A DNA stretch of 64,000 nt from Escherichia phage ukendt, in sequence record NC_052661.1. One strand, written 5' to 3'. Below the pieces are notes generated by a model that worked only from the letters and a program-made list of their open reading frames with translations, had not been told where the DNA came from and searched no databases. Shown piece by piece: positions 24,251-32,034 of this stretch. The position numbers and the translations under genes were made by a program. How positions within the stretch are numbered: the first letter of the stretch is position 1; every line of letters starts with the position of its first letter.

Positions 24251-24522
24251 TATTCTTCGTTAGATTGCGTTTCAGATGCGTTAAATTCGGTTTCAGTACA
24301 ACTTGCTAGGTAACTTATATTTTGCATCACTACAACTACAGGTGTTTGAAGTTTATCTTCTAGCCCCGCAGCTACTTGAGCCAAGGCATTATCAATATTT
24401 GATTTCCTAACACCTGTTCCATGTCCTGTTGCCAAGTAAAGATTACCTTCCCCTTTTTGTGTAGCATTAGCAAAGTAGTAAACGTAATGTGCAAGGTAGT
24501 AATCACGGATTTCTTCAGTCAT
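24250..24522 (-). CDS. hypothetical protein (90 aa)
   Basis: ORF track. Confidence 0.45.
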   Translation of the reverse strand: MTEEIRDYYLAHYVYYFANATQKGEGNLYLATGHGTGVRKSNIDNALAQVAAGLEDKLQTPVVVVMQNISYLASCTETEFNASETQSNEE

Positions 24523-24542
24523 TTTATTCTCCTAATAAGAAA

Positions 24543-24560
24543 GGGGCCGAAGCCCCTTGA
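24543..24560 (-). terminator. hairpin GGGGC-CGAA-GCCCC (identical copies at 36631 and 42797)
   Basis: palindromic stem-loop followed by T-run in minus sense. Confidence 0.5.
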
Positions 24561-24565
24561 GTGGT

Positions 24566-25366
24566 TTATTTGTTTAAATGGTCTTCAACCATTTTGATAA
24601 AGCCTTCATCACTGAAGACTGTTCCTGCTTTCTCTCGGTAGACAAGCACTCCACGTTCTTCGTAGAGAGTTTGTTCTACAAAATTCAAACCTGGGTTAAC
24701 TACAACCATCTTAACCCCAATATTCAGGGCAGGGAAGAGTTCCCAGTTGAAGTTGATTACTTGGTTAGAGCAGCCTACAACGATAACCATATCTTGTGAT
24801 GTTAGTTGATCCAGTTTGTGATACATGTCTGTGTAGAGCGGTGCATTCTCACCAAAAAACACCACATTAGGCTTCACATATTTGTAATCGTCTACATCAA
24901 TAGCTGCGTAACCCACATCTTTGATAATTTTGTTATCAACAACAACTTCTGGCAAGAAACCATGAACGTGCAATATTTCTTCTCTATCGATTCCAGCGCG
25001 TTCTAATAGATCGTCAACGTTAGTAGTGATGTTAATAATCCTTTCTGCACCGTATTTTTCGAACCATTCTCCAATCTGAAGATGTGCTGGATTCGGGTCA
25101 ACTTTCTCTAATTCCACGCGACGTTTATTGTAGAAGTCGTGAGTTTTACGGTAGAGGTTATATCCTTCCACATCTAAGCCACCCATAGCATCAGGAATAC
25201 CCTGTTCTTGCTGATAACCGTCACGGAAGTTGAAAATGTCACAGACTTCTGTCAAATCGTATTCATCCCATAATGCCTTTCCAGAATCTGTTTCTGTGCG
25301 AAATGTTTGGATTCCGCTGTCAGCACTTAGTCCCGCACCACTAATAAAATATACACGTCTTGGCAT
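24566..25366 (-). CDS. Sir2-like NAD-dependent deacylase/ADP-ribosyltransferase family protein
   Basis: sirtuin motifs GAGLSADSGIQTFR, ITTNVDDLLERAG, HVHG, KPNVVFFGE; no Cys4 zinc module. Confidence 0.65.
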   Translation of the reverse strand: MPRRVYFISGAGLSADSGIQTFRTETDSGKALWDEYDLTEVCDIFNFRDGYQQEQGIPDAMGGLDVEGYNLYRKTHDFYNKRRVELEKVDPNPAHLQIGEWFEKYGAERIINITTNVDDLLERAGIDREEILHVHGFLPEVVVDNKIIKDVGYAAIDVDDYKYVKPNVVFFGENAPLYTDMYHKLDQLTSQDMVIVVGCSNQVINFNWELFPALNIGVKMVVVNPGLNFVEQTLYEERGVLVYREKAGTVFSDEGFIKMVEDHLNK

Positions 25367-25839
25367 TATTCGTCCTCCTCAAATGGATCATAAGAATCAT
25401 ATTCGTAAGTATCATCTTCTGAAAATTCTACTTCAAAATAAATATCAAACTCTGCAAATAGACAGAGGATGTTAGACATGCTATAATAATTATCGTAGGC
25501 AGATTCAGCTTCATAATAAACATAAAGCAAATGGTTAGCCTTATCATCTTCCAAATATTTCCCGTCTGCATAAGCATAATCCGCATATGCTTTACCTGCA
25601 TCTTCTACAAAGGAACGATCAAGCAGAGTAGGAAAGGGTTTCTCTTTTTCTTTTAGTTTGCTCACCAACCAATGTGCAATCTCACTCCAGTCTGCATCCA
25701 TTCCACTGAAACAACTGGCACCTTCACCAAATTCTGCTTCTCCTAAGTCCCCTTTAATAGTAACTACAGTAGAGCTATTGTAACCGCAATCTTCACAGTC
25801 TGAATAACTATTGTGGACATTAATTTCTACTTGAAACAT
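25366..25839 (-). CDS. hypothetical acidic protein (157 aa)
   Basis: ORF track. Confidence 0.5.
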   Translation of the reverse strand: MFQVEINVHNSYSDCEDCGYNSSTVVTIKGDLGEAEFGEGASCFSGMDADWSEIAHWLVSKLKEKEKPFPTLLDRSFVEDAGKAYADYAYADGKYLEDDKANHLLYVYYEAESAYDNYYSMSNILCLFAEFDIYFEVEFSEDDTYEYDSYDPFEEDE

Positions 25840-25896
25840 ATTCCCTCCTATAAAGAAAAGCCCCCTGAAACAGGAGGCTTTGTTCAGATGTTGGCA

Positions 25897-26550
25897 CTAT
25901 ACCAGACTTTGTAGGTATTTGTCAAGGGCTTCTTGATCACCTTGGCAAACATAGCAACGGAAGTCTTGAGACGAAGGTTGTTTATTTTCATCCCAATCCC
26001 AATAAACATTACCTTTATAACGTGAGCCAGGAAACTCAAAAGAGGCTGTATGTGTAATGTATCCTGGGCCACCAGTGAAATCACAGAATGAGAATTGAGG
26101 GTATGCCGCCTTTACTGCCTCAATAAACCAAGCTTTACGATCTAATGCTTCATTGATGCTATATGCATGTCTCTCCATTTCTTCCCAAGTTTTCCAGACA
26201 CTTCTCTCATCAGGAGAAAAGACAAGCCATTCTGGAAGGTAGAGAGTGTCATAGTAATCATCATATTCGATCTCGGAGGCGCACGAAGCTGACTCCTCCA
26301 GTTTTGAGTAATCAAAAGCCGAATATACCCACCAACCATCTTCCAGTAAGGCTTTGATAGGGACGAAGCCTTTATCAACATATTGATCGAATTGTTTGAC
26401 ACGGTGGCTTGTGCAGTCTTCAAACTCACATTCTAAACGATAGGCACCTTTTCGACGAGCCTCAAGACCGTGTGTACTGAAAATAACAACACTTCCTTCA
26501 CCATCGTTACGATCTACTTGATAAGCAACTACTGGTTTTGAATTTGACAT
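25897..26550 (-). CDS. hypothetical protein (217 aa)
   Basis: ORF track. Confidence 0.5.
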   Translation of the reverse strand: MSNSKPVVAYQVDRNDGEGSVVIFSTHGLEARRKGAYRLECEFEDCTSHRVKQFDQYVDKGFVPIKALLEDGWWVYSAFDYSKLEESASCASEIEYDDYYDTLYLPEWLVFSPDERSVWKTWEEMERHAYSINEALDRKAWFIEAVKAAYPQFSFCDFTGGPGYITHTASFEFPGSRYKGNVYWDWDENKQPSSQDFRCYVCQGDQEALDKYLQSLV

Positions 26551-27233
26551 TATTTCTCCTTATCTAGAAGATTGTTAGACAAAAACACGGCACGAGCAAA
26601 ACCACGTGCGGTTAGGGATCTAAGTTGTTTTGTTTTTGCACTAGCTCCACCTAAGCTTTTCCAACCCCAGAAGCAGCCTATATGATCTACTGGTTTCTTC
26701 ACTGGTTGAACAAAACCATTGCCGTGCCAAATACAAGTTTTCTTTGTATACCCATCACGGGTAGGCATTTTAGGATGAAAGCTCCCTTCCTCTTCAAACA
26801 AATACCCACCATACTCATAAGGATCAAAGTAAAAATCGGGTTTACGCCATAAGGTTGAAAGTTTACCTACTGGGTTCTCAATCATCCAAGGAACATTATA
26901 TTTGTTACCCAAAGCTTCCACTACACGAATATTAGCTAAAGCTTCATCCAATTCCTCTGTGCTACGTTCGTGTTTGCTACCACTACCTGCTAACATAGTG
27001 CAAGGTGGAAATCCAAAAATAATATCGGGTTTAGGTATCCCATGATCTTCAGGGTTGAATGTAGAATCTATCCAAGCATTCACATAGGTTATGTTTGGGT
27101 GCTCCATCCTAACCTCGTATTTACCGTGATCCCCTTCATCAGCGTTTACACAAAAACACTTGTGACCTGCTTCGGCATAACGTAACACCATGATCCCAGA
27201 TCCGTCAAACATAGACAAAACTGTTTTACTCAT
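26550..27233 (-). CDS. DNA cytosine-C5 methyltransferase-like protein (short, atypical)
   Basis: motif I FDGSG, motif IV GFPPCT (PCQ-like), motif VI ENPVG; start placed at MSKTV after RBS ggagggg. Confidence 0.4.
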   Translation of the reverse strand: MSKTVLSMFDGSGIMVLRYAEAGHKCFCVNADEGDHGKYEVRMEHPNITYVNAWIDSTFNPEDHGIPKPDIIFGFPPCTMLAGSGSKHERSTEELDEALANIRVVEALGNKYNVPWMIENPVGKLSTLWRKPDFYFDPYEYGGYLFEEEGSFHPKMPTRDGYTKKTCIWHGNGFVQPVKKPVDHIGCFWGWKSLGGASAKTKQLRSLTARGFARAVFLSNNLLDKEK

Positions 27234-27639
27234 TACCCCTCCATTCAAGACAAGCCATAACTTTACGCCAATCACTTTCTGTAAGAAAAATCTCGTTTGC
27301 TTTCTTCCACAAATCTAAATCGTGAAGGGTTGGAATACGATATGTTAGTTCACAGAATCTATGCTCTTCTTCTGTAATATAACCAAAATGCAGAGCCACA
27401 TCGTGAAACCAACACCAACCATGCATCTCTCGAACAACATGGTCATGCTGAGACATTGTTTTATGCCGTAAACCTAACCAACAAGGAACAGATACTTTAG
27501 TAGTCTTTAATCTGTGATCAACAATATTAGAGTATTCAATAATAGCTGTCAGTTTCAATCGTGCTTTTTCTAAATCCTCGTGGGTCACTTTGAAATAACT
27601 TTCTGAAAGATATCCACACATATTAATAACCTCCTTCAA
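27226..27639 (-). CDS. hypothetical protein (137 aa)
   Basis: ORF track. Confidence 0.45.
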   Translation of the reverse strand: MKEVINMCGYLSESYFKVTHEDLEKARLKLTAIIEYSNIVDHRLKTTKVSVPCWLGLRHKTMSQHDHVVREMHGWCWFHDVALHFGYITEEEHRFCELTYRIPTLHDLDLWKKANEIFLTESDWRKVMACLEWRGNE

Positions 27640-28564
27640 AAGGCTTAACTACATGTTGATTAGCTTTAAAACGTTCAACATAGTCGTTTTCACCCATGTT
27701 TTCATATAGCTTAGTAACAACATAAAAGTTTTCCCAAGCATATTCCCTAAACCAACCACTAGTGATGGATGTGCAGACTTTAGATAAAGCCATTATAAAA
27801 CTTTGCTTAGGGGTTGGACCTCCGATCTCTCCACCGAAAGGAATTTGTGAACGTTCCAAAGCCAAAACACACGCTTCTTCATAAACACCTAACAGGCGCA
27901 CATGTTTTGGTTGAGCAAAAAACTTTTCTTTGCTGGTCATAACTTCACTTCCATCCTTCATATAAGATTTATATGCTGGAGCATCCATTACTGCGATTGC
28001 TTCATGAATAGAGTCATGATCATAAACATACGGAACCTCATCACCTTTAAAGAAGTCTTTACTTCTCACGTTTAAGTTTGGATGAGAGTAAGTGTATGTT
28101 TCTTTCTCACGCAACTCATAAATACTCTTAAGATTTTCTGGGATCTTTGCGCCTAGTGATCGCATGAAATGAATATCTTTCATAGTTTTAAAGAAGTGAG
28201 GACTATCCTTTTTAAAACGATGACTCATTTTAAGAAGGTAGAGCACATCTAAAGGAGCAACAACGTGTCCAGCGTAAGTTCGACGAATATCATCAGAGTC
28301 TTCACAATAACTAATCAAAGCTTCTGTGCTATCTCCTTGAGAAGCAATATCGTATTCCAAGTGTGCACCAGCTATCATTTTGACATGGCCCTTGTTCCCT
28401 TTACGCTCTACAAGTTCAACAAACTCATCTTGAGAGAACATTTTTGATAATTCTTCCCACTCTTGTTCTGTACAGAGATAATCTAAATCTACACAAGGGC
28501 GATACAAGTCTTTTCCCATGTCCATAGCATGAATTTGTAATGCACGGCTACCAATTAACACCAT
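27623..28564 (-). CDS. hypothetical protein with possible Pol-beta-type nucleotidyltransferase signature
   Basis: N-terminal IGSRAL...VDLDYL resembles the hG[GS]..Dh[DE]h minimal NTase motif. Confidence 0.35.
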   Translation of the reverse strand: MVLIGSRALQIHAMDMGKDLYRPCVDLDYLCTEQEWEELSKMFSQDEFVELVERKGNKGHVKMIAGAHLEYDIASQGDSTEALISYCEDSDDIRRTYAGHVVAPLDVLYLLKMSHRFKKDSPHFFKTMKDIHFMRSLGAKIPENLKSIYELREKETYTYSHPNLNVRSKDFFKGDEVPYVYDHDSIHEAIAVMDAPAYKSYMKDGSEVMTSKEKFFAQPKHVRLLGVYEEACVLALERSQIPFGGEIGGPTPKQSFIMALSKVCTSITSGWFREYAWENFYVVTKLYENMGENDYVERFKANQHVVKPFEGGY

Positions 28565-28624
28565 AATATTTCTCCTCTATTGGTTGATAGGTTAAGTTTA
28601 TCAAGCTTCCAGATTTCTGTCAAT

Positions 28625-28644
28625 AAAAAACCCGCCGAAGCGGG
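28625..28644 (-). terminator. rho-independent terminator CCCGC-CGAA-GCGGG
   Basis: stem-loop followed by T6 in minus sense. Confidence 0.6.
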
Positions 28645-28654
28645 TTATTATTTA

Positions 28655-28927
28655 CTAACACATTGAGGAAGAAGAGATCCAAACACCTCTTGTGGTTAAA
28701 CCATTTTCATCCAACTCTACACCATAATCTTCACAAATGAAATCAATATAGTGATCTGCGGCTGGCGTTCCTGTAGGGTAATAAGTTTCTCCGTTACCGT
28801 AGTCACCTATCCAAGCTTGTTCCTGAAACTGTTCACAAAGTTCTTCAATCTCCTTACGAAACTTTCTTTGTGCTTGTTCCATCTCTTTAACTTTCTTTTT
28901 TATCAGCAGTTCGCCTTCAGACTCCAC
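28655..28927 (-). CDS. hypothetical small acidic protein, C-terminal W-x-SSS-x-C
   Basis: ORF track; C-terminus GVWISSSSMC paralogous to 28937 and 29442. Confidence 0.5.
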   Translation of the reverse strand: MESEGELLIKKKVKEMEQAQRKFRKEIEELCEQFQEQAWIGDYGNGETYYPTGTPAADHYIDFICEDYGVELDENGLTTRGVWISSSSMC

Positions 28928-28936
28928 AATCTCTCC

Positions 28937-29197
28937 TTAACAGCTACTACTGTGCCAAACGCCTTGAGAATTAACGACGAAACCATCATCACCTTCACCA
29001 TAACAAGAAGAGGATTGCCAATCTTCAAAACAGATTGCGTCATTTTCTAAACTAAGACCAAAACCAGCATCTTCAGCTTCTTTTGTAAGTTCGTCCACTA
29101 AAGCCATAATAGCTTGGGCTTTTTCAGTTAATTCTTCAACATTACGATCACTCATTAGTATTTCTCCTCTGGTTGGAAAACTGAACGACAAGCCCAC
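28937..29197 (-). CDS. hypothetical small acidic protein, C-terminal GVWHSSSC
   Basis: ORF track; paralog of 28655. Confidence 0.5.
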   Translation of the reverse strand: MGLSFSFPTRGEILMSDRNVEELTEKAQAIMALVDELTKEAEDAGFGLSLENDAICFEDWQSSSCYGEGDDGFVVNSQGVWHSSSC

Positions 29198-29469
29198 ATA
29201 CTAGCTTCTTTTAAATGTTTAATAGCACAACGGATTTGATCAATACGTTCGTATGCAAGATCTAATTCTTTTTCTGTGCCGTCAAAAGACCCATGATATG
29301 CTTCACAATACTCTTCCTCTAAAGCTTTGAAGATTAAACCTAAACGCTCTTCTGCATCTTTAATAGCGTTAACCTTGCCAATCTTATCGTCAGTATGCGC
29401 CTTATAACCTTTGATATCTTCGATTCCCACTTTACCTCCTATTAACAACTTAAAGAAGATGGGTGCCAA
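29155..29469 (-). CDS. hypothetical protein (104 aa)
   Basis: ORF track. Confidence 0.45.
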   Translation of the reverse strand: MAPIFFKLLIGGKVGIEDIKGYKAHTDDKIGKVNAIKDAEERLGLIFKALEEEYCEAYHGSFDGTEKELDLAYERIDQIRCAIKHLKEASMWACRSVFQPEEKY

Positions 29470-29639
29470 TTTGTTCCAGTATTCTCATTTTCATCTTCTG
29501 GATCATAATAGCCACCCATCCCATATTCAGGGGAGAAACGGAAACCTTTACCAGTCTCATCTGCTAACTGCTCTGCTTCCGCTAAAGCCTCATAAGCTGC
29601 TTTTACGGCTTCTTCTACTGTTTTAAACTTGGTCGTCAT
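29442..29639 (-). CDS. hypothetical small acidic protein, C-terminal WHPSSLSC
   Basis: ORF track; third member of the SSC-tail family. Confidence 0.45.
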   Translation of the reverse strand: MTTKFKTVEEAVKAAYEALAEAEQLADETGKGFRFSPEYGMGGYYDPEDENENTGTNWHPSSLSC

Positions 29640-29913
29640 AAAATTTCTCCTCTCCTAAAGACATGTTGACATGAAATGCACGATATGTAAATTCGTTGTC
29701 CGTTGTGTTTGAATAAAACTCAAATTGAACAACACCGTCTTGAGAAGACAGATACATGCCAATTTGAACTGTTCCTTCTGGTACCAGGTAAGCATACTCT
29801 GGACGTAGTGTTACATTGTAAAAATAAAGTTCCCCAACACCCATTTCATCCCAAGCTTCCCAAGCGGTAACGAAGTTACTTTCAAAACTTGTTACTGATC
29901 TGAACTCTGCCAT
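29623..29913 (-). CDS. hypothetical protein (96 aa)
   Basis: ORF track. Confidence 0.5.
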   Translation of the reverse strand: MAEFRSVTSFESNFVTAWEAWDEMGVGELYFYNVTLRPEYAYLVPEGTVQIGMYLSSQDGVVQFEFYSNTTDNEFTYRAFHVNMSLGEEKFYDDQV

Positions 29914-30404
29914 AAAACCTCCTCAATCTTGTAGTTTGACTCCATCTCCAACACATTTCCACGAACGTCTCTCCGAAGAAAGGCATAAGCTTTATTAGGT
30001 ATTGTAGACTCATATTTAACCATATCTGGCACAGCAAAAGATACTACTACTCCTGCTGGGCTTCTGTCAAGAGCCTTATTAATATTTCTAAGGATATCGT
30101 TAGCCAAGATTTCTGCCAATTCTCCAAGAACGGTTTCGGTTATATCTTTATATCCCATTAAGTATTTGTTGATATCTTTCATCTCTGTATTGTTCAGAGT
30201 ATAATCCAAAGGATAGAAATTCAAAGCGGAGTCACTTTTATGTGTCCACATGAAATGCACCCGATCCGAGCAGAATCGTAACCCTCTTTGAAGAATATCT
30301 TCTACAACAGGCAGAATTTCTTTTGTCACATCATTAACCATGTTGTAATCTAAGATTTCTGCCAAGTTTGTTCTTTGTTCACCACGTTTACGTTTAGGAA
30401 TCAC
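29892..30404 (-). CDS. hypothetical protein (170 aa)
   Basis: ORF track. Confidence 0.5.
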   Translation of the reverse strand: MIPKRKRGEQRTNLAEILDYNMVNDVTKEILPVVEDILQRGLRFCSDRVHFMWTHKSDSALNFYPLDYTLNNTEMKDINKYLMGYKDITETVLGELAEILANDILRNINKALDRSPAGVVVSFAVPDMVKYESTIPNKAYAFLRRDVRGNVLEMESNYKIEEVLWQSSDQ

Positions 30405-30975
30405 TTGTTATTGCCCTCATTACCAAAGGTCGTAGAAAATCGTAAATCTCTTGTTTTGTTTTCCCACGAATGTTTAAACAAGGAACATTATTGGCTTTAG
30501 CTATCTTCCAAGCCGTAGCTGTTCCGCCTTTTGCATCCCCATGTTTATCAGTATTAGCACAAGCCAACAAGAAACACGATGGAGCAGGATTCTCCAAATC
30601 TCTGCCTAACACCTGATGCACATTACGTTGGTGCAATTTTCTAGCACCCTGCTTAAGCTTTTCATAAGCTGGGTGAACATCTTTGATCCATTGCACAGAG
30701 ATAGCATAGTTCATTGTATCTGGTTTTGCAAGAACAATAACATCACCTGGAATCTGATTACCTTTGAAATTTTCCCAAGGAACATAAATCTCCTTGTTAG
30801 TAGGATTTTCAGACTCTTGGACACCTGTTTCAAAAGCAGAATCACTACCCTCTGCCTTCCCAGACCTTAATTTAAACCCAAGGTTTGAAAGCCATTTCCC
30901 TATGCCTACCATCAAAGCCCACTCTTCTTCAGATATATCTCTACTTCCAACTCCCGTATAGAACAGTTCTGCCAT
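30394..30975 (-). CDS. DprA/Smf-like (SLOG-type) Rossmann-fold protein
   Basis: GVGSRDIS ... SGKAEGSDSAFETG resembles the DprA GSR / SG.A.G.D signature; start at MAELFY after RBS gaggtga. Confidence 0.35.
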   Translation of the reverse strand: MAELFYTGVGSRDISEEEWALMVGIGKWLSNLGFKLRSGKAEGSDSAFETGVQESENPTNKEIYVPWENFKGNQIPGDVIVLAKPDTMNYAISVQWIKDVHPAYEKLKQGARKLHQRNVHQVLGRDLENPAPSCFLLACANTDKHGDAKGGTATAWKIAKANNVPCLNIRGKTKQEIYDFLRPLVMRAITSDS

Positions 30976-30982
30976 AATCACC

Positions 30983-31291
30983 TCAACAAGTAATTTCAAA
31001 AGGTGTATAGGGTTCCGTATTTCTCATGATCCAAGGACTGCTAGGATTGCTCGGATCATAAGGACCAAAAGGTTTTATGGTAGGTTGTGTTTCTTTCTTC
31101 TGAATCTCTTCAAAAATACGACGAAGTTCAGAATATTCTTGATCCACCATAAGATTCGGTGCATCCGATTCTACAGTTTGCAGGTTATCTTCCTTAAAAA
31201 CAATCTCACGAACAAGATTAACATCTTCTGTTTCTAAGATAACTTCTTTACGGATATTACCTACACTTTGAATAATTGTAATCTTATACAT
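30983..31291 (-). CDS. hypothetical protein (102 aa)
   Basis: ORF track. Confidence 0.5.
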   Translation of the reverse strand: MYKITIIQSVGNIRKEVILETEDVNLVREIVFKEDNLQTVESDAPNLMVDQEYSELRRIFEEIQKKETQPTIKPFGPYDPSNPSSPWIMRNTEPYTPFEITC

Positions 31292-32034
31292 TAATCCTCC
31301 TCAAGAGTTGAATAAAATTGAAGACCACCGTCCATATCGAAATAAGCAAATGTTAAGTTATTATTGAACACAGATCCAGTATCCATATAAACACGATTCG
31401 CATTGATAATAGGTGTTTTTACATAAGAGTGTCCATGGAACACATAGTCCACACCCATCACAACAGGAAGTTTCATTCCCTCTTTAGCACAGTCCACCAT
31501 ATCTCTGTCCCACATAAGTGCTTCAGCAAAACGGTTTTCCTGTGTTTTTGTCATCTTCAAAGTGTATTCTGGAATATCTGTTACAGGGAGATATTCCAAA
31601 GAAGATGGATACCCACCATGAATAAACGCAAGTTTCATGCCTCTGTAGTTAACAATGAGAACAACAGGTAAATCTTCTGTCATCATTGCTAAGGCTGTAG
31701 CTCCTTCTTCACCACATTCTTCAAGGACTGTATATCCTCCATTTTGATACCAACACTCGAAGTAGCTACGATCTCCTTCCAGCATACCTTTAATCATCAT
31801 GTCTTCATGATTTCCACGAATAGCGTAGCGATTGTGTTTACGAGTAAATTCTAAAACACAACGAAAGTTTTGCTTTCCACGGTCAGTAAGATCTCCTAAA
31901 GATACAACTACATCTGTATCTCGGATACCTAACTTTGCCTTTCCTTTTTCATACAAATTATAACAACCGTGTAGATCTCCAATTATAAAAAGATCTTGAT
32001 CGCTTTTAACAGTAATTTCTCTATGTATGATCAC
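31291..32034 (-). CDS. Ser/Thr protein phosphatase (calcineurin-like metallophosphatase)
   Basis: GDLHG, GDLTDRG, GNHE motifs. Confidence 0.8.
   Translation of the reverse strand: MIIHREITVKSDQDLFIIGDLHGCYNLYEKGKAKLGIRDTDVVVSLGDLTDRGKQNFRCVLEFTRKHNRYAIRGNHEDMMIKGMLEGDRSYFECWYQNGGYTVLEECGEEGATALAMMTEDLPVVLIVNYRGMKLAFIHGGYPSSLEYLPVTDIPEYTLKMTKTQENRFAEALMWDRDMVDCAKEGMKLPVVMGVDYVFHGHSYVKTPIINANRVYMDTGSVFNNNLTFAYFDMDGGLQFYSTLEED

Follow-up and report, generated by a model that had tools for sequence, protein, structure and literature searches.

Small proteins encoded beside a nucleotidyltransferase are known from two toxin-antitoxin systems. In MenAT1 of Mycobacterium tuberculosis, the MenT1 toxin belongs to a group of DUF1814 enzymes that are homologs of AbiEii, a toxin of abortive infection (PMC7450476, PMC11375011), and its small partner MenA1 induces MenT1 to phosphorylate its own Thr39 (PMC11375011). 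In the type VII system HepT/MntA, the gene of a minimal nucleotidyltransferase adjoins that of a partner which the enzyme covalently nucleotidylates on a conserved hydroxyl, MntA being described as polyadenylylating HepT (PMC7641770). Here we describe a locus of Escherichia phage ukendt (NC_052661.1) in which three small genes, ORF1, ORF2 and ORF3 (ORF; open reading frame), whose products end in a shared Trp...Ser-Ser...Cys tail, lie upstream of a gene for a predicted nucleotidyltransferase with the Pfam domains DUF7277 and DUF7275. All coordinates refer to the window, that is, the whole stretch of 64,000 nucleotides (nt) analysed. We propose, with a probability of roughly 0.4, that the Cys-tailed proteins and the DUF7277-DUF7275 nucleotidyltransferase form a two-component phage module in which the enzyme docks on the tail or uses it as an acceptor. 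The small proteins themselves are a large acidic alpha/beta family, found almost only in phage sequences and characterized by a YGxG loop and an invariant C-terminal tail.

This module works most like the MenAT1 and HepT/MntA pairs but does not fit the definition of either system, because its small proteins show no homology to those partners, several paralogs are present per enzyme, the module was seen almost exclusively in phage sequences, and the Pfam families are different. The likeness to MenAT1 is that of a small ORF directly upstream of a nucleotidyltransferase gene, although in the window terminator-like and promoter-like sites lie between the two. MenAT1 has one antitoxin per toxin, whereas three paralogs are present here and one to six elsewhere, and the phage module was hardly ever seen outside phage sequences and not as a cellular system. 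The phage small proteins are alpha/beta proteins with the invariant C-terminal W..SS..C tail (all structural statements in this work concern monomer predictions), and no similarity to MenA1 was found in either their sequence or their structure; the phage enzyme, for its part, matches DUF7277 and DUF7275 in Pfam rather than DUF1814 and carries an additional, large helical domain at its C-terminus. HepT/MntA offers a precedent for the chemistry proposed below, but ORF1 to ORF3 have no HEPN domain (no Pfam match) and, on inspection of the sequences, no Rx4-6H motif. Moreover, the candidate acceptor in the phage proteins is a Ser or Cys of the C-terminal tail and not a Tyr beside an RNase site, and several partners are encoded per enzyme in a phage context. 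A more distant comparison is RlaP (PF10127), likewise a phage-encoded protein of the DNA polymerase beta (Pol-beta) fold, which is RNA-ligase-associated and occurs in phage RNA-repair clusters. Genes for RNA ligase or polynucleotide kinase do occur a few kb or less from some DUF7275 loci; however, none of 24 enzyme homologs matches PF10127, and Cys-tailed small partners have not been reported for RlaP. The parts of the window that were examined showed no RNA ligase.

All three small genes are on the minus strand. ORF1 (28655..28927; 90 amino acids (aa), GTG start) is of the 'GDYGNGETYYP' subtype and ends in GVWISSSSMC; ORF2 (28937..29155; 72 aa) is of a short-tail subtype with a W-to-C spacing of 5 and ends in GVWHSSSC; and ORF3 (29442..29639; 65 aa) is of the canonical YGMGG ('AYGMGG'-type) subtype, with EYGMGGYYDP in its body and NWHPSSLSC at its end. 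These endings and positions agree exactly with those given in a sequence-only reading of the window, as does its description of the products as small and acidic (65-90 aa; isoelectric point (pI) 4.05-4.4, with a family median of 4.5). The same reading had called the three genes tandem, which does not strictly hold, since an unrelated 91-aa gene (29155..29430, minus strand) separates ORF2 from ORF3. Many Phapecoctavirus genomes (phAPEC8-like Escherichia coli myoviruses of ~150 kb) share the region at 98-99% identity. For ORF1, the RefSeq call is a 75-aa form that starts at an ATG at 28882; because the GTG at 28927 is preceded by AAGGAG and the resulting 15-residue N-terminal extension is kept in two homologs (P0005 and P0006), the GTG is most likely the true start.

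Six-frame translation of the window gives 1072 ORFs of 30 aa or more, and among these only ORF1 to ORF3 have the ending W-x(1-3)-SS-x(0-3)-C. The chance expectation, estimated from 200 nucleotide shuffles and 200 within-ORF residue shuffles, is a mean of ~0.04 such ORFs per window with a maximum of 1 for both shuffle types, compared with the 3 observed. The tail Ser residues are encoded by TCT, TCC and TCA in ORF1, by AGT and AGC in ORF2, and by TCT and AGT in ORF3; use of both the TCN and AGY codon families implies that selection acts on the protein. An origin of the tails by chance or as a nucleotide-level repeat was therefore rejected on the basis of the shuffles and of the differing Ser codons. 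In ORF2 the motif occurs twice, the internal copy (DWQSSSC) running directly into the YGxG loop, such that the protein reads ...FEDWQSSSCYGEGDD...GVWHSSSC. An internal motif of the form D-W-x-S-S-[S/A]-C was also observed in ORF2-type genes at two other loci (L003:4480-4710 and L009:4724-4951), and the double motif suggests an old internal duplication or fusion.

All three products match PHROG 899, a family without an assigned function (E-values of 5.1e-14, 1.4e-5, and 1.2e-12 for ORF1, ORF2, and ORF3, respectively), aligning over its C-terminal ~75 positions, and a family hidden Markov model that we built from 149 sequences recovers ORF1 (2.8e-13) and ORF3 (1.9e-23) with a weak match to ORF2 (0.06). 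None of them matches Pfam, NCBIfam, or PADLOC. The sequence-only reading had staked its proposal on the conservation of the tail in homologs, and conserved it is. A profile search of 1.84 billion representatives returned 561 clusters at 50% identity (E of 1e-3 or lower), and 143 of 148 newly listed representatives have the motif at their very C-terminal end. Among 386 non-redundant members, 372 end in the terminal Cys, with a Trp-to-Cys spacing of 7 in 311 members and 5 in 47. Both the Trp and the Ser at W+3 are present in every member with the usual spacing (370/370), and a Ser follows at W+4 in 95% of the 311 members with spacing 7, while mean column identity over the rest of the family alignment is 11%. 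By these alignments, no other feature of the family is as conserved as the tail. The family consensus can be written as a helix, F.F..(A)YG(M)GG.Y.P, an acidic linker, and G-W-x-[S/A/P]-S-S-x-x-C-COOH. WISSSSMC of ORF1 and WHPSSLSC of ORF3 represent the form with spacing 7, and WHSSSC of ORF2 the W-x-x-S-S-C variant with spacing 5. The Y-G-x-G loop takes the forms DYGNG, CYGEG, and EYGMG in ORF1, ORF2, and ORF3, respectively, and in our alignment (A1) its Tyr is invariant and both Gly residues are at least 90% conserved. Departures from the tail were also observed: GWAPSNVCW and AWTPSGCSY carry one or two residues beyond the Cys (L076:4519-4983 and L089:4244-4480), and three paralogs of one locus (L017:125-1353) end in GW[V/E]PSGL[N/D]C, in which the second Ser is replaced by Gly.

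Outside the tail, the three proteins have little in common. BLASTP comparisons among them align only ~11 tail residues (E-values of 0.04 to 2). Separate sets of other loci contain BLASTP hits to each of them, 40 loci for ORF1, 29 for ORF2, and 63 for ORF3, the best hits shown being ~47-82% identical. The subfamily types ('GDYGNGETYYP' for ORF1, the short-tail 'DW.SSSCYGEG' for ORF2, and 'AYGMGG' for ORF3) co-occur in several phage lineages, and about half of the collected members fall into further subtypes. The ORF2 architecture has orthologs in 29 loci, including Edwardsiella phage PEi20 and an Aeromonas phage. ORF1 homologs with 49-59% identity retain GVWISSS(E/S)MC in T4-like phages (Enterobacter phage Entb_45 and PEi20) and in a JGI metagenome. 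By these comparisons, ORF1 to ORF3 are ancient divergent paralogs representing three long-separated subfamilies. A recent tandem duplication was rejected, the three being separate, widely distributed subfamilies. The earlier description of three paralogs is thus borne out by the common match to PHROG 899 but overstated, as these are ancient subfamilies whose array is interrupted by another gene.

The partner enzyme gene (27623..28564, minus strand; 313 aa) lies ~90 nt downstream of ORF1. The synteny statistics that follow were drawn from ~120 sampled loci, and the collection scans used exact conserved patterns, which miss divergent relatives. The window and eight other isolate-phage loci, from distinct lineages, show the pairing. 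Three Cys-tailed genes precede the enzyme homolog in the RB69-like phage Shf125875 and five in PEi20, and the same pairing is found in Pseudomonas phage phiPsa397 (Otagovirus), Acidovorax phage ACP17, Acinetobacter phage Konradin, Erwinia jumbo phage Hallingskeid, and Aeromonas phage G2. In Stenotrophomonas phage Ps15 the order is flipped, with the small genes downstream of the enzyme, and adjacency is retained. Starting from the enzyme, one to six family members were found within 5 kb in 75 of 80 IMG/VR loci, all 228 of these members being on the strand of the enzyme gene. The nearest member lies within 1 kb in 72 of the 75 loci and upstream in 70, and three of the five loci without a member bear variant tails that extend one or two residues past the Cys. 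Starting from the small proteins, metagenome contigs of six arbitrarily chosen representatives carried the enzyme within one gene in five cases, the sixth contig being just 963 bp long. Loci found by a DNA pattern for YGMGGTYYP alone had the enzyme as the next gene in all 10 cases with enough downstream DNA.

Of ~50,700 deposited phage genomes, 734 encode the enzyme and 411 encode relatives of the ORF1 type. A scan for conserved enzyme motifs across the genomes of 185,579 species yielded five loci, all in metagenome-assembled genomes (MAGs) and all with Cys-tailed genes upstream (5/5); these are possibly mis-binned phage contigs. Short, divergent DUF7275 homologs were found without small partners at six loci, namely in Streptomyces phages BillNye and Faust, Vibrio phages RYC, K406, and V09, and Pseudoalteromonas phage PH357. 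A Pfam scan of 24 enzyme homologs matched DUF7277 in 22, the remaining two presumably being the short proteins of BillNye and RYC. As full-length enzymes are partnered and short ones are not, the linkage is specific to the full-length enzyme, for which it is close to obligate. The neighbourhoods of the short homologs (L007, L011, and L118-L121) were also surveyed. The Vibrio set includes a KVP40-like phage; the Streptomyces homologs lie near RNA ligase genes, with a polynucleotide kinase gene in addition in BillNye, and those of RYC and K406 adjoin genes for NAMPT and phosphoribosyl pyrophosphate synthetase. Such neighbours hint at an RNA- or nucleotide-directed ancestral activity.

Alignments of the enzyme reveal an invariant G5-S6 and D26-x-D28 together with a conserved acidic E70, the classical signature of Pol-beta nucleotidyltransferases. 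Invariance extends to K112, H115, K126, D182-H183-D184, H187, E229-E230, E237-R238, K262, T265-S266, and W271, and mean column identity across distant phages is 42%. Comparison with solved structures by sequence returned nothing meaningful, and the 24 homologs scanned against Pfam matched no other family, including DUF1814 and PF10127; assignment of the enzyme to RlaP or DUF1814 by sequence was consequently rejected. Comparison of the predicted fold placed MenT1 first (11.7), followed by TglT/MenT3 (10.2), ANT(2'') (9.7), the Megavirus poly(A) polymerase (9.6), and MenT4 (9.0), with TM1012, LnuA, and JHP933 lower at about 8.6. The enzyme is thus predicted to be a Pol-beta-fold nucleotidyltransferase whose closest structural relatives are toxins of the MenT/AbiEii type. 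In public records, members of the family and the enzyme are named 'hypothetical', 'DUF7275 domain-containing', or 'putative nucleotidyltransferase'. The most conserved motif of the enzyme, C-T-S-I-T-S-G-W at residues 264-271, reads W-G-S-T-I-S-T-C when reversed and then shares its W...C spacing and Ser/Thr richness with the small-protein tail; this resemblance may be a coincidence.

An AlphaFold2 model of ORF3, computed from 149 sequences, has a predicted local distance difference test score (pLDDT) of 86.2. A long helix near the N-terminus (residues 8-29) is followed by three strands that form a sheet, the first two being connected by the YGxG loop. Trp58 of the tail lies in strand beta3 (block mean pLDDT of 82), residues 61-64 form a short helical turn that starts at the invariant Ser, and confidence falls to its minimum over the final five residues (mean pLDDT of ~65). 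No meaningful similarity between the small proteins and solved structures was detected. Given its location in a strand of a confident model, the Trp is probably a structural core residue as well.

In the module that we favour, the variable body of each paralog would confer a distinct function or target, while the shared, exposed C-terminal tail would serve as a common handle for recognition by the enzyme. Divergent proteins with a common C-terminal motif are typical of clients sharing one receptor or enzyme, and we consider the small proteins as such clients because many divergent proteins here share a C-terminal motif beside one conserved enzyme. The strict confinement of the motif to the C-terminus, where the otherwise confident model is least certain, fits this pattern. 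A near-constant enzyme (42% identity) accompanied by diverging small proteins fits one enzyme serving many diversifying clients. The tail would most likely enter the active-site cleft of the enzyme, where the invariant Ser at W+3, or possibly the terminal Cys, would be nucleotidylated or phosphorylated, and this modification would switch the small proteins on or off in early infection. Chemistry rather than mere packing is suggested because two nucleophilic residues, the Ser and the terminal Cys, are invariant, and transfer of a nucleotide or phosphate onto the tail is plausible because the fold relatives MntA and MenT1 modify protein hydroxyls. The sequence-only reading had suggested that the tail marks a shared interaction or modification site: the conservation on which it depended and a linkage to an enzyme, as expected for such a site, were both found, and as to the nature of the site, we infer physical contact through the tail and its covalent modification. 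The biological role of the module is probably in host takeover or counter-defence.

Several observations weigh against this proposal. A terminator-like hairpin (28629..28646, minus strand; AACCCGC-TTCG-GCGGGTT followed by a T run) stands directly after the ORF1 stop codon, and a sigma-70-like promoter with an extended -10 element (28595..28623, minus strand; TTGACA, 17 nt, TG-n-TAAACT) immediately ahead of the enzyme gene, both assignments being consensus matches only. With these two sites between them, ORF1 and the enzyme are not obviously part of one operon, and the array and the enzyme gene may be transcribed separately in this phage. The position of Trp58 in a confident beta strand indicates that part of the motif conservation is structural. 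Short enzyme homologs occur without small partners, and hence the core activity of the enzyme does not need the small proteins. The closest structural relatives, MenT1 and MenT3, add nucleotides to the 3' ends of transfer RNA (tRNA) and not to proteins (PMC7450476, PMC11375011). The enzyme is not notably basic either (pI 5.4-7.2). Finally, unpartnered enzymes with a readable motif have Ile or Val in place of Cys264, yet one partnered enzyme (L097) also lacks this Cys and has Ala instead; a strict link between Cys264 and Cys-tailed partners was accordingly rejected and is suggestive at best.

The alternative that survives best, though we regard it as somewhat unlikely, is that the small proteins are MenA1-like antitoxin regulators of a MenT-like RNA or tRNA nucleotidyltransferase that is harmful when unchecked or needs timing. 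The small proteins would bind the enzyme and inhibit or retune it, for example through a tail that blocks the acceptor cleft or by inducing auto-phosphorylation of the enzyme. The closest structural neighbour and the gene order speak for this reading: MenA1 is a protein of 68 aa encoded directly upstream of MenT1 and acting through its N-terminal alpha helix (PMC7450476, PMC11375011), and the partners in the window are acidic proteins of 65-90 aa, encoded upstream on the same strand, that start with a long helix. However, each phage enzyme is accompanied not by one such protein but by one to six divergent, anciently separated paralogs, whose invariant residues are located in the C-terminal tail and not in the helix. 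The enzyme of the window has a promoter-like site of its own past the terminator-like hairpin, and it has no match to any other Pfam family, DUF1814 included. In the conserved-motif scan of the genomes of 185,579 species, the module turned up only in the five MAG contigs, which may be mis-binned phage DNA.

In a further reading, which we judge unlikely, each small protein would work on its own early in infection, for example as an inhibitor of host defence, a mimic of nucleic acid, or a sponge that binds nucleotides, with its tail contacting a host target or ligand. Adjacency to the enzyme gene would then reflect not joint action but joint inheritance in a mobile accessory cassette. Small size and acidity (see the pI values above) agree with such a role, and the invariant Tyr, the Gly-rich loop, and the Trp could form a ligand pocket. 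The genes also lie in an early accessory region, with annotated methyltransferases and a Sir2-like gene nearby, and in this genus a sponge gene is inserted in the array. This is the gene between ORF2 and ORF3 (29155..29430, minus strand; 91 aa, GTG start), which is not a member of the Cys-tail family and for which RefSeq NC_052654 has no annotation. Its product matches Pfam PF24729 (Acb2/Tad1 hairpin) at 1.2e-16 and the Vs.4 structure 7UQ2 in the PDB at an E-value of 1.8e-28, and is by these matches clearly an ortholog of T4 Vs.4/Acb2, a sponge for cyclic nucleotides directed against CBASS (cyclic-oligonucleotide-based antiphage signalling system). ORF1 to ORF3 themselves were rejected as Acb2/Tad1 sponges, as PF24729 and Vs.4 match the interleaved gene and not the Cys-tailed ones. 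The presence of Acb2 hints weakly at an anti-defence role.

Guilt by association with Acb2 is weak, however, since the gene lies inside the array in this genus only. Some T4-like phages carry it 4-5 kb away, and in the closest relative outside the genus (L020) genes of the ORF3, ORF2, and ORF1 types are contiguous. Acb2 was for this reason rejected as a conserved member of the module. ORF1 to ORF3 moreover match no Pfam family or PADLOC defence-system model. A further argument against mere co-inheritance is the linkage itself, which is near-obligate in both directions, spans unrelated lineages, keeps to the same strand, and survives a flip in gene order.

That the tail is purely structural and read by no partner, with the Trp filling the core, the Ser capping the terminal helix, and the Cys packing, is very improbable: Trp58 does lie in beta3 and the helical turn at residues 61-64 does begin at the invariant Ser, but capping and packing positions normally show some Thr, Asp, or Ala, whereas the Ser is retained in 370/370 members and the terminal Cys in 372/386 despite 11% mean column identity, the motif is confined strictly to the C-terminus, model confidence is lowest over the final five residues, and the linkage to the enzyme would be left unexplained.

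Returning to the two-component module with the tail as the site of action of the enzyme, a bolder version of it can be formulated, which we consider improbable. The enzyme would activate the Ser by phosphorylation or nucleotidylation and the Cys would react, giving a thioether (lanthionine-like) ring or a Ser/Cys-linked nucleotide adduct. A ring would form by elimination followed by thiol addition, with the Cys four residues on from the Ser, or two in the short variant, and with possible assistance from the His/Asp/Cys-rich DUF7275 domain. The outcome would be a covalent maturation of folded viral effector proteins similar to that of ribosomally synthesized and post-translationally modified peptides (RiPPs). 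To our knowledge, neither this enzyme fold nor any virulent coliphage has been linked to tail processing of this kind. A conserved Ser and Cys at positions i and i+4 have the typical spacing of a lanthionine ring, and RiPP/lanthipeptide arrays likewise consist of several short paralogous genes beside one enzyme gene. The conserved part in the phage family is, however, the C-terminus of a folded protein of 65-100 aa and not a leader peptide, and no LanB, LanM, LanKC, LanC, protease, or exporter was found among six neighbouring ORFs, whose Pfam matches comprised DUF7275 and DUF7277 plus sub-threshold noise.

The genes of the array are closely spaced. The gap between ORF3 and the Acb2 gene is 11 nt, the Acb2 stop codon and the ORF2 ATG overlap in TAATG, and ORF2 and ORF1 are 9 nt apart. 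On the other side of the enzyme gene, a 137-aa ORF (27226..27639, minus strand) shares 17 nt with its 3' end, so that translation of the two may be coupled. No Pfam, NCBIfam, or PADLOC match was obtained for this ORF, and the genes at its position in T4-like loci look different. The larger region on the minus strand (~24500..31300), as annotated in L001, includes a Sir2-like gene, two DNA methyltransferases, a DprA/SLOG-like gene, and a NinI-like phosphatase. By these annotations, this accessory-rich early region fits a neighbourhood of host takeover or counter-defence.

PHROG 899, DUF7275, and DUF7277 are catalogued families to which databases give no function, and a literature search, with most subscription journals beyond its reach, found no description of the tail motif, the gene pair, or the module. 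Both components are nevertheless common in phages, including RB69-like, other T4-like, jumbo, and therapeutic-candidate coliphages, where they are still annotated as hypothetical. The motif and the gene pair provide a concrete hypothesis for a block of phage 'dark matter' and can be used at once as annotation rules, whether the tail is a modification site or the small proteins are regulators, and the natural variant tails could guide mutagenesis. If the tail is a modification site, phages would have a new way of controlling several early effectors with a single enzyme; if the small proteins are instead regulators of a tRNA-directed enzyme, biology of the MenT/AbiE type would extend from bacterial defence to the phage side.

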